From positions 12,123 to 76,122 of the forward strand of contig CAUPNM010000021.1 of the NCBI GenBank assembly GCA_963512645.1: a DNA stretch of 64,000 bases. Direction: 5' to 3'. Origin of the DNA: an uncultured Albidiferax sp. (GTDB lineage: Bacteria; Pseudomonadota; Gammaproteobacteria; Burkholderiales; Burkholderiaceae_C). Position numbers and translations under genes: made by a program. Under the pieces are notes generated by a model. It was not told the DNA's origin. It was given only the letters and a program-made list of their open reading frames with translations, and did no database searches. Below, piece after piece: positions 43,480 through 45,207 of this stretch (position 1 is its first letter; every line of letters begins with the position of its first letter).

Positions 43480-45207
43480 ATGTCCAACACCCCGTCCACC
43501 GATCGCCGCAACTTCCTAGCCCGCGCGGGCCTGCTGGGAGCTTGGCTGCCCTTCTCGCAACTGGGTACTGCCCATGCGTCCGTCGATTGCGCCTTGCCGC
43601 CGGCCTTTCCAAGCCAGATCCCCTTGTACCGGCAAAGCTTCAAGAACTGGGCCGGAGACCTGGCTGTGGACGATGTTTGGACCTGCGCGCCGCGTTCTGC
43701 CGCCGAGGTCGTAGAGATCGTCAACTGGGCGCGCAACGCGGGCTACAAGGTGCGCCCGCGCGGCATGATGCACAACTGGTCGCCGCTCACCATGGCTGCA
43801 GGCCAGCAAGCCTGTGCAGCCGTACTGCTGCTAGACACCACCCAGCACCTGACGGCCATCTCTATAGACACCCGCACTTCCCCCTGTACGGTGACCGCCC
43901 AGACCGGTATCACCATGCAGGAGCTTCTAACGCGCCTGGAAGCCGCAGGGCTCGGCCTGACCGCGACGCCCGCCCCTGGCGACCTGACCCTGGGCGGCGT
44001 GCTGGCCATCGACGGCCATGGCACGGCGGTGCCCGCCAGGGGCGAGACCCGCAAGCTGGGGCAAACCTACGGCTCGGTCAGCAACCTCGTGCTGTCGCTT
44101 ACCGCAGTAGTGTTCGACAACGCGCAGCAAAAATATGTGTTGCGCACCTTTGCCCGCAACGACCCAGGGATCGCCCCCTTGCTGGTCCACCTGGGCCGGG
44201 CCTTCATCGTAGAGGCCCGCTTGCAGGTCGGTACCAACCAGCGCCTGCGTTGCCAGAGCCGGATGGATATCGCCTATACCGAACTGTTTGCCCCCCAGGG
44301 CAGTGGAGGGCGTACCTTTTCCAGCTTTCTGGACAGCGCAGGCCGGGTCGAGGCCATCTGGTTCCCCTTCACCTCCTTCCCCTGGCTCAAGGTGTGGAGC
44401 CTTGCGCCGACCAAGCCGCTGCTGGCCCGCCGTGTTTGGGGCCCCTTCAACTACGTGTTCTCGGACAACGTGCCGATTGAGATCACCGACCTGCTGGCAC
44501 GGATCGTGCGCGGCGAGCCCTGGCTGACACCGCTGTTCGGGCAGGCCCAGGCGAAGATCTCGGCACTCGGACTGGCCAGCACGCTGTCGCTGGACCTGTG
44601 GGGCTGGTCCAAGGACCTGCTGCTGTACGTCAAACCCACCACCTTGCGCGTCACGGCCAACGGCTATGCGGTGCTGACGCGGCGCTCAGATGTACAGCGC
44701 ACGCTGCATGAGTTCACCAGCTTCTACCAATCGCGTGTGCAGGCCTGGCAGCGCAGTGGCAAGTACCCGATGAACGGCCCGGTCGAGATCCGCGTGACTG
44801 GCCTGGACCAGCCCGGCGACGTAGCACTGCCTGGTGCGGTGGCACCCACGTTGTCTGCCGTACGCCCCCGGCCCGACCACCCCGAGTGGACCGTAGCCGT
44901 GTGGTTCGACATCCTGACGGTGCCCGGCACCCCGCATGCCAACGCCTTCTACCGCGAGATCGAACAGTGGATGCTGTCGAACTTCTCGGGTAGCTATGCC
45001 GCCGTGCGGCCAGAGTGGTCCAAAGGCTGGGGCTACACCGACACCGCCGCCTGGGACGATGCCAACGTGCTCGGCTACACCGTGCCGCAGGCCTACCGCG
45101 ACGGACAAGCCATCGGTGAGCGCTGGGAAGAAGCCCAGGCCGCCTACAACCGGCACGACCCCTATCGGGTGTTCAGCTCACCACTGCTGGACCGGCTGTT
45201 GCCTTGA
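43480..45207 (+). CDS. Class II (VAO-family, FAD-linked) cholesterol-oxidase-like protein with Tat signal
   Basis: Tat motif DRRNFL then AHA cleavage; RGMMHNWSP, PAPGDLTLGGVLAIDGHGT, YP.NGPVEIR, RPEWSKGW and C-terminal F..PLLDRLLP resemble Burkholderia/Chromobacterium-type enzymes as I recall them. Confidence 0.85.
   Translation: MSNTPSTDRRNFLARAGLLGAWLPFSQLGTAHASVDCALPPAFPSQIPLYRQSFKNWAGDLAVDDVWTCAPRSAAEVVEIVNWARNAGYKVRPRGMMHNWSPLTMAAGQQACAAVLLLDTTQHLTAISIDTRTSPCTVTAQTGITMQELLTRLEAAGLGLTATPAPGDLTLGGVLAIDGHGTAVPARGETRKLGQTYGSVSNLVLSLTAVVFDNAQQKYVLRTFARNDPGIAPLLVHLGRAFIVEARLQVGTNQRLRCQSRMDIAYTELFAPQGSGGRTFSSFLDSAGRVEAIWFPFTSFPWLKVWSLAPTKPLLARRVWGPFNYVFSDNVPIEITDLLARIVRGEPWLTPLFGQAQAKISALGLASTLSLDLWGWSKDLLLYVKPTTLRVTANGYAVLTRRSDVQRTLHEFTSFYQSRVQAWQRSGKYPMNGPVEIRVTGLDQPGDVALPGAVAPTLSAVRPRPDHPEWTVAVWFDILTVPGTPHANAFYREIEQWMLSNFSGSYAAVRPEWSKGWGYTDTAAWDDANVLGYTVPQAYRDGQAIGERWEEAQAAYNRHDPYRVFSSPLLDRLLP

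Follow-up and report, generated by a model that had tools for sequence, protein, structure and literature searches.

The class II (VAO-fold) cholesterol oxidases (EC 1.1.3.6) described so far include those of Chromobacterium sp. DS-1 (PDB entry 3JS8), Brevibacterium sterolicum (BCO; PDB entry 1I19), Burkholderia cepacia ST-200, and Pseudomonas aeruginosa (PA4140). Here we analyze a further one, ChoX, which is encoded by an intact open reading frame (ORF) of 575 codons at positions 43480 to 45207 (+ strand) of a 64,000-nucleotide (nt) stretch of an Albidiferax genome; the whole of this stretch is called the window below. ChoX has the same two-domain architecture, flavinylation histidine, catalytic Glu and Arg, and gate residues as the enzymes named above, and it shares with them a twin-arginine signal and the lack of adjacent steroid catabolic genes. 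Unlike theirs, however, the choX gene lies in a putative operon with the genes for an exporter and for a peptide with a double-glycine (GG) leader. In our search of the literature, no paper connected a cholesterol oxidase with systems of the double-glycine, microcin, or C39 type. Thus, two features of this locus appear to be undescribed: a class II cholesterol oxidase that is integral to a GG-peptide/C39-exporter cassette, and the conserved pairing of such an oxidase with one family of peptides.

The clusters for class II microcins, such as that for colicin V (cvaC-cvi-cvaA-cvaB), have the same GG/GA leader, C39-peptidase ATP-binding cassette (ABC) exporter, and HlyD-type adaptor as the cassette, and a TolC-like gene is present in one relative of the cassette (locus L064). 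They differ from it in that no immunity gene is recognizable in the cassette; instead, a 575-amino-acid (aa) flavoenzyme of the twin-arginine translocation (Tat) type occupies the immunity or accessory position. In addition, the peptide of the cassette is of an unannotated family and is predicted to have a compact helical fold. A different parallel is offered by p-cresol methylhydroxylase, which is located outside the cytoplasm and combines PchF, a covalent flavoprotein of the VAO family, with the small (∼9 kDa), co-encoded PchC. PchC is a c-type cytochrome, whereas the peptide encoded with ChoX has neither a CxxCH motif nor any cysteine, and the likeness is one of arrangement only.

Secreted cholesterol oxidases that are not catabolic are also encoded in Streptomyces polyene clusters (PimE, ScnE, PteG, and RimD), where the enzyme likewise belongs to a cluster for another secreted agent. 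The PimE-type enzymes are class I oxidases (GMC fold, noncovalent flavin adenine dinucleotide [FAD]) of Gram-positive hosts and are paired with polyketides, whereas ChoX has the class II VAO fold, a Gram-negative host, and a ribosomal peptide with a type I exporter as its partner. Because of its fold and its partner, we rejected ChoX as a member of a PimE-like group; the likeness is functional. A cholesterol oxidase gene is present in every antifungal cluster of the small-polyene type (PMC4700089). Pimaricin production requires PimE (PMC4700089), the proposed functions of which are the sensing of ergosterol and the triggering or support of the antifungal action (PMC4700089; PMC10580950).

The oxidase, the peptide, and the cassette that encodes them

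The profile PF09129 (Chol_subst-bind) matched ChoX over 321 of its 321 positions (E = 2.8e-155; 516.7 bits; cut-off, 25), and PF01565 (FAD_binding_4, the VAO-type FAD domain) matched it with E = 3.9e-14 (53 bits; cut-off, 26.4). ChoX aligned end to end with both 3JS8 (E = 6e-256) and 1I19 (E = 3.5e-172), and it is ∼67% identical to its Chromobacterium homologs. When residues were mapped by hand from the structure-chain alignment, E291 and V384 of ChoX corresponded to Glu311 and Ile423 of BCO, which we take to be the oxygen gate residues; valine at position 384 is also found in 3JS8. By the same mapping, E436 and R438 correspond to Glu475 and Arg477, the catalytic residues of BCO (PMC7588053). 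H98, the histidine of the RGMMHNW motif, falls in an ungapped part of the alignment opposite residue 69 of the 1I19 chain, i.e., of mature BCO. The histidine that binds FAD covalently in BCO is His69 in the mature numbering and His121 in the precursor numbering (PMC2890692; PMC7588053), and the codon for H98 (43771 to 43773, + strand) accordingly marks the predicted 8α-histidyl-FAD attachment site.

Conservation reaches at least 95% in 202 columns across 43 homologs, and ChoX keeps the family residue at 198 of them; this comparison gave no sign of decay or of an altered active site. Judged by its sequence, ChoX itself is a further member of a well-known family with its conserved catalytic residues intact, and it is very probably a secreted 3β-hydroxysteroid oxidase.

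The N terminus of ChoX is a twin-arginine signal peptide of ∼33 residues (43480 to 43578, + strand), in which TDRRNFLA is followed by a hydrophobic stretch and then by AHA-S, the likely cleavage site; this site lies just ahead of residue 37, where the mature 3JS8 chain begins in the alignment. An RRxF/L motif is found at the same place in 51 of 53 full-length homologs, and the twin-arginine motif has been noted for all class II cholesterol oxidases (PMC4899797). Ball et al. reported that the P. aeruginosa enzyme, PA4140, leaves the cell via Tat and then the Xcp type II system (PMC4899797). Both tatC and gspL, a type II secretion system (T2SS) gene, are encoded in the genome that carries choX, and so a Tat-then-T2SS route is available to ChoX. 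A first-pass annotation of the window had singled out the twin-arginine signal (TDRRNFL), a VAO-type FAD region, and the histidine of RGMMHNW as the likely site of covalent FAD. The motif, hydrophobic region, and AHA of the signal, the PF01565 match, and the alignment of H98 with His69 all agree with that description. The signal and the histidine are thus real, but as points of special interest they do not stand, because both, like the lack of nearby steroid genes, are already documented traits of the family.

The second gene of the cassette is choX; the gene order is GG-leader peptide, choX, HlyD-type adaptor, and C39-peptidase ABC exporter. Homology to another genome of the same genus (G208), the TldD of which is 99% identical, ends at position 42804 and resumes at 48672, and at this empty site in G208 the rodA-tldD spacer is only ∼61 bp. 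The four genes and a 244-bp AT-rich region are therefore an accessory cassette of 5,867 bp (42805 to 48671, + strand) inserted between tldD and rodA. The AT-rich region (39% GC; 42805 to 43048) is 5′ of the peptide gene and presumably has a promoter or regulatory function. The GC content of the cassette as a whole (0.655) is close to that of the genome (0.631) and gives no compositional sign of a recent foreign origin.

The first gene (43049 to 43366, + strand) encodes a 105-aa precursor, the leader of which, MQQLATSSISALSDHEIDQVSGA (43049 to 43117), is of the double-glycine type (LSDHEIDQVSGA followed by G). In 14 homologs the leader retains the motif LSxxEIxQVSGA/GG. The mature part, which begins with GFFGSL..., has 82 aa, a mass of 8.4 kDa, and a pI of 5.2. 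Directly after choX is the gene for the 437-aa HlyD-family type I secretion adaptor, or membrane fusion protein (45204 to 46517, + strand; Pfam HlyD_3 and HlyD_D23; TIGR01843, E = 3.7e-34). This gene starts with TTG, which overlaps the stop codon of choX in the sequence TTGA, and the same 4-nt overlap has been called in L070, a near-identical copy of the cassette. The last gene (46523 to 48667, + strand) encodes a 714-aa peptidase-containing ABC transporter with C39 peptidase, ABC membrane, and ATPase domains (Pfam); we placed its start at M17, following the gene call in L070. The peptidase domain (PF03412, E = 4.6e-34) keeps the catalytic-type motifs QTEATECGLAC and NHFVVL. All of the parts of this export system are present, that is, a precursor with a GG/GA leader, a C39 ABC transporter with the catalytic Cys and His motifs, and HlyD, and the peptide is predicted to be cleaved and secreted by the exporter of its own cassette.

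A terminator scan found no plus-strand terminator-like site between the four genes, which fits a single transcript, and we infer that they are cotranscribed. A consensus scan of the operon, including the AT-rich region, found no sigma-70 match. No conserved small membrane-protein ORF that could be an immunity gene was found in the cassette, where the only additional ORFs were overlapping or antisense, and none had been called in the cassettes of L063, L064, and L070. The cassette occupies the same site at five other Rhodoferax/Albidiferax loci (L001, L063, L066, L067, and L070). The more distant cassette of L064 has different flanks, a second GG-leader peptide, and, after the exporter gene, an additional TolC-like OEP gene. 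This second peptide, which is encoded upstream of the main one (L064:676-876, + strand), is unrelated to it and rich in Cys and Pro (MAIRELSAKEVQNVSGG followed by TFCLLGG...KCGC).

Searches with Pfam, NCBIfam, and PDB profiles found no relatives of the peptide. AlphaFold2, given 21 sequences, predicted a helical bundle (mean predicted local distance difference test [pLDDT] value, 87; >93 across the mature part), and a Foldseek search with this confident model found no structural match in the PDB. Our attempts to name the family by these means thus failed. Seven residues of the peptide are invariant, and all of them are polar (N42, N46, S51, H68, D72, H99, and E103).

A minor correction concerns the gene next to the cassette. 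The tldD ORF as called mechanically (41332 to 42906) is overextended; both homology to the sister genome and the L070 gene calls indicate 42804 (Met35) as the true start, and the first 34 codons of the mechanical ORF fall within the AT-rich end of the cassette (42805 to 42906).

Pairing of the peptide and the oxidase in other lineages

We surveyed the pairing with a profile of the 80-residue core of the peptide. The family is a small and rare one: a set of 1.84 billion representative proteins contained 72 clusters of it. The gene for the peptide domain adjoins that for a class II ChoX in seven lineages or more and in four gene orders; the pair was found in Rhodoferax/Albidiferax, Paraburkholderia, and Tenebrionibacter, and at loci L023, L064, L076, L077, and L078. 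In Paraburkholderia, all 7 of the 7 loci examined, including that of P. xenovorans LB400, have the pair, with the peptide domain encoded downstream of choX on the same strand and contained within longer proteins that are rich in Ser, Ala, and Gly. At L023 the peptide gene, which has a GG leader, is upstream of choX, and on the metagenome contig L078 the order is exporter, peptide, ChoX. In the insect-associated Tenebrionibacter/Tenebrionicola the two genes are convergent, and the peptide (P0029; L074:7001-7276, + strand) has the GG leader MRELTVNELDMVAGG. No exporter gene is adjacent to the pair in Paraburkholderia, L023, or Tenebrionibacter, where the other neighbors are unrelated genes of sugar and nitrogen metabolism.

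In a tree of the ChoX proteins, the peptide-linked enzymes fell into two separate clades. Apart from generic ABC ATPase genes and genes for nonribosomal peptide synthetases (NRPSs), the peptide was the only neighbor within 4 kb that the ChoX clades had in common. Given the recurrence of the pair in different orders, the common cassette, and the rarity of the peptide, we think it rather probable that the products of the two genes work together. We found no change common to both peptide-linked clades at the family-conserved columns, and on this ground rejected a specialization of the peptide-linked enzymes.

The peptide domain is not confined to loci with ChoX. In a Collimonas sp., a homolog with a GG leader (P0031; L072:7001-7282, + strand) is encoded after a 612-aa protein (L072:5008-6846, + strand) that has no Pfam match and no similarity to ChoX, and the peptide may have another partner there. 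In a 960-aa RTX-type protein (L079:1131-4013, + strand; HemolysinCabind and HCBP_related), the core domain is repeated four times in tandem, and the search of representative proteins gave three more proteins with multiple copies (P0053, P0063, and P0088). Because the domain occurs in Collimonas and in the RTX-type protein without ChoX, it has an extracellular function of its own.

Two further observations were made on the neighborhoods of choX genes. On the metagenome contig L077, three small ORFs without a Pfam match (95, 106, and 183 aa; 5523 to 5810, 6408 to 6728, and 6925 to 7476, all + strand) surround the peptide-domain gene downstream of choX and could encode additional components. In Chromobacterium sp. 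CV08, choX (L002:7001-8713) is divergently adjacent to the gene for a 2,105-aa NRPS with AMP-binding, condensation, and PP-binding domains (L002:363-6680, − strand), and NRPS ORFs of the same BLAST cluster are beside choX at 4 of 4 Chromobacterium loci. The set of Chromobacterium species with these matches is the same as that of the carriers of the hml/jagaricin cluster, which specifies an antifungal, hemolytic lipopeptide and was described without mention of a cholesterol oxidase (PMC12077216).

Possible roles of the enzyme and the peptide

The explanation that we favor is that ChoX and the peptide form a noncatabolic, extracellular module of enzyme and peptide directed at sterols, a proposal for and against which we judge the balance to be about equal. 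ChoX would acquire its fold and its covalent FAD in the cytoplasm before Tat exports it, with the type II system as the probable means of its release; once extracellular, it would convert 3β-hydroxysterols to 4-en-3-ones (or 6β-hydroperoxy-enones), yielding H2O2. From the same four-gene accessory operon, the C39-ABC/HlyD exporter would cleave and secrete the 82-residue helical peptide. The two products would most likely act jointly on the sterol-containing membranes of eukaryotes (fungi, protists, or algae), either as a membrane-damaging pair or as a sensor or amplifier of sterol; among the modes of action we infer this one, with the peptide as a helper or sterol carrier ranked just behind it. 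That the producer has no sterols would explain the lack of an immunity gene in the cassette. The proposal is also in keeping with the polyene antifungal clusters of which a cholesterol oxidase gene is part. A narrower version, that the two are a dedicated two-component system against sterol-containing eukaryotic membranes that moves as a self-contained cassette and brings its own type I exporter, is more tentative, and we regard it as possible rather than probable.

The role of noncatabolic cholesterol oxidases in Gram-negative bacteria is a question that this four-gene system makes testable. If the pair acts on sterol membranes, the range of double-glycine, microcin-type systems would extend to interactions with fungi, protists, or hosts. 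The narrower version would make this the first microcin-like system that is enzyme assisted and is aimed at eukaryotes instead of rival bacteria, and for which no immunity gene is needed. Action of the pair on sterol membranes would also give a function to a rare peptide domain, which is known here from Paraburkholderia, Collimonas, RTX proteins, and an enterobacterium associated with insects.

Several points weigh against this explanation. Of the 53 class II choX genes, 43 (in Burkholderia, Chromobacterium, Janthinobacterium, and Acidimicrobiia) are without the peptide, and thus the enzyme clearly works without it. No transmembrane segment is predicted in the peptide (maximum KD19, 1.36), and its invariant polar residues look more like a binding site than like part of a lytic peptide; it could also be a conventional antibacterial microcin. 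The searches for catabolic genes that are reported below cover the aerobic 9,10-seco pathway, as distinct from the anaerobic (2,3-seco) one. The main observation that a secreted pair leaves unexplained is that the ChoX of Tenebrionibacter is signal-less, so that there the enzyme and the peptide could meet only in the cytoplasm or after lysis. This enzyme of Tenebrionibacter/Tenebrionicola (L074:7327-8925, − strand; 532 aa; 50% identical to ChoX) starts at the mature domain (MELKTIKPAG...), with neither a Tat signal nor any other signal peptide, and there are in-frame stops upstream.

One alternative, which we consider unlikely, is that the peptide is a class II microcin of the ordinary antibacterial kind that travels with its exporter, and that choX shares the mobile block by chance, as secreted cargo unrelated to the peptide. 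ChoX would then act alone, as in Burkholderia and Pseudomonas, in membrane damage or sterol scavenging, and would simply be one more class II oxidase. A GG leader with C39-ABC and HlyD is the canonical export set of a microcin, the majority of choX genes have no such peptide beside them, and the peptide domain is found without ChoX as well. Yet this very rare family of peptides is almost always encoded beside ChoX. The pair recurs in at least seven lineages and four gene orders, including lineages in which no exporter is near (Paraburkholderia, L023, and Tenebrionibacter), and the immunity gene expected of a microcin is not visible in the cassette.

It is also possible, though unlikely, that the secreted peptide is a nontoxic helper that binds ChoX or sterol; it would dock the enzyme on membranes or hand over insoluble sterol, much as a hemophore does with heme. 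Cholesterol oxidases must extract their sterol from membranes or micelles. The compact fold predicted for the peptide would be soluble, its invariant polar residues suggest a binding site, and the pairing persists where the exporter is not adjacent. Against this, the Foldseek search found no match to the fold of a lipid-binding protein, and the benefit of such a carrier is not obvious in a genome that is unable to catabolize steroids.

That ChoX acts on the co-encoded peptide was one of the suggestions of the first-pass annotation, and if it did, a new kind of ribosomal, modified peptide would be at hand. The oxidized residue could be, for instance, Ser51 (invariant) or Ser52, or else one of the Tyr or His residues in the YHY motif; enzymes of the VAO family oxidize both alcohols and phenols, the gene pair is tightly conserved, and in Tenebrionibacter, where ChoX has no signal peptide, the enzyme could encounter the precursor in the cytoplasm. 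Most of the evidence points the other way. ChoX homologs carry the RR motif for Tat export (51/53), whereas the peptide exits through a system that spans both membranes, and ChoX keeps the catalytic and gate residues of a sterol oxidase together with 198 of the 202 conserved columns, with no change common to the peptide-linked clades. The AlphaFold2 model suggests a compact, folded helical domain and not a floppy core peptide, and neither the RTX protein nor Collimonas has a ChoX beside the peptide domain. We therefore regard modification of the peptide as quite improbable.

Steroid catabolism and substrates made by the host

The host genome is 100% complete and is in 56 contigs. Within ±10 kb of choX there were no steroid, sterol-uptake, or catalase genes; the neighbors encode AccBC, Mpl, DAHP synthase, TldD, RodA, a GGDEF protein, and RNase II, all of them housekeeping proteins, and the sole catalase gene of the genome is on a different contig from choX. 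The first-pass annotation, which had reported no steroid-degradation, sterol-uptake, or catalase genes in the window and had doubted that ChoX is a catabolic entry enzyme, had also called for a search of the genome for steroid catabolic genes.

That search came out in its favor. The C-terminal domain of KshA (PF19298) had 0 matches in the complete host genome. The same search gave full-length matches with E values of 1e-52 to 1e-61 in ∼7 of 201 genomes of the family, and these strong matches in relatives show that it works. The 40 kb around the match in one of these relatives (G026) is a genuine Comamonadaceae steroid cluster, with a FadD3 at 715 bits (cut-off, 657) and with HsaA-like, HsaB-like, and KstD-like genes. 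When all of the ORFs of this cluster were run against the host genome by tblastn, there was no homolog of HsaA and no ortholog of FadD3 (the best match was 32% identical); the remaining matches, with 27 to 41% identity, were scattered, and none was on the choX contig. Three full-length proteins of the KstD superfamily are encoded together on contig C1, but they score 381 to 453 bits against KstD cut-offs of 788/789, and the generic FAD-oxidoreductase models NF009477/NF004789 fit them best. Class II ChoX was found in 1 of the 201 sampled family genomes and in 3 of 16 genomes of the genus, and in none of the ∼7 family genomes with KshA.

From these results it is likely that ChoX is not catabolic in this host. 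The role that the first-pass annotation preferred, that of an effector or H2O2 generator, is plausible; in its favor is the conserved link between choX and the genes for a secreted peptide and its exporter. The remaining alternative, that ChoX is an entry enzyme that starts sterol assimilation via an unrecognized or anaerobic route, is highly improbable: the classical role of cholesterol oxidases is indeed catabolic entry (PMC4700089) and three paralogs of the KstD superfamily are present on C1, but KshA, HsaA, and a FadD3 ortholog are missing from the genome, the KstD-like proteins are below the cut-offs and fit generic models best, the steroid-degrading relatives are without ChoX, and choX itself is placed in a peptide-export cassette amid housekeeping genes.

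A search for squalene-hopene or oxidosqualene cyclases found none in the host genome, and the host therefore makes neither hopanoids nor sterols. We thus rejected a hopanoid or sterol of its own as the substrate of ChoX, and with it the hopanoid substrate that the earlier annotation had put forward. To our knowledge, hopanoids also lack the 3β-hydroxyl that a ChoX-type enzyme oxidizes.

The three KstD-superfamily proteins on C1 are part of a larger group of genes in the host genome (G000, C1:167010-184060). Besides these FAD oxidoreductases, the group encodes short-chain dehydrogenases/reductases (SDRs), a shikimate-dehydrogenase-like protein, regulators of the IclR and AraC types, and an ABC importer of the Liv type. 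These genes do not form a steroid ring-opening cluster and probably serve to catabolize some alicyclic or ketone substrate.

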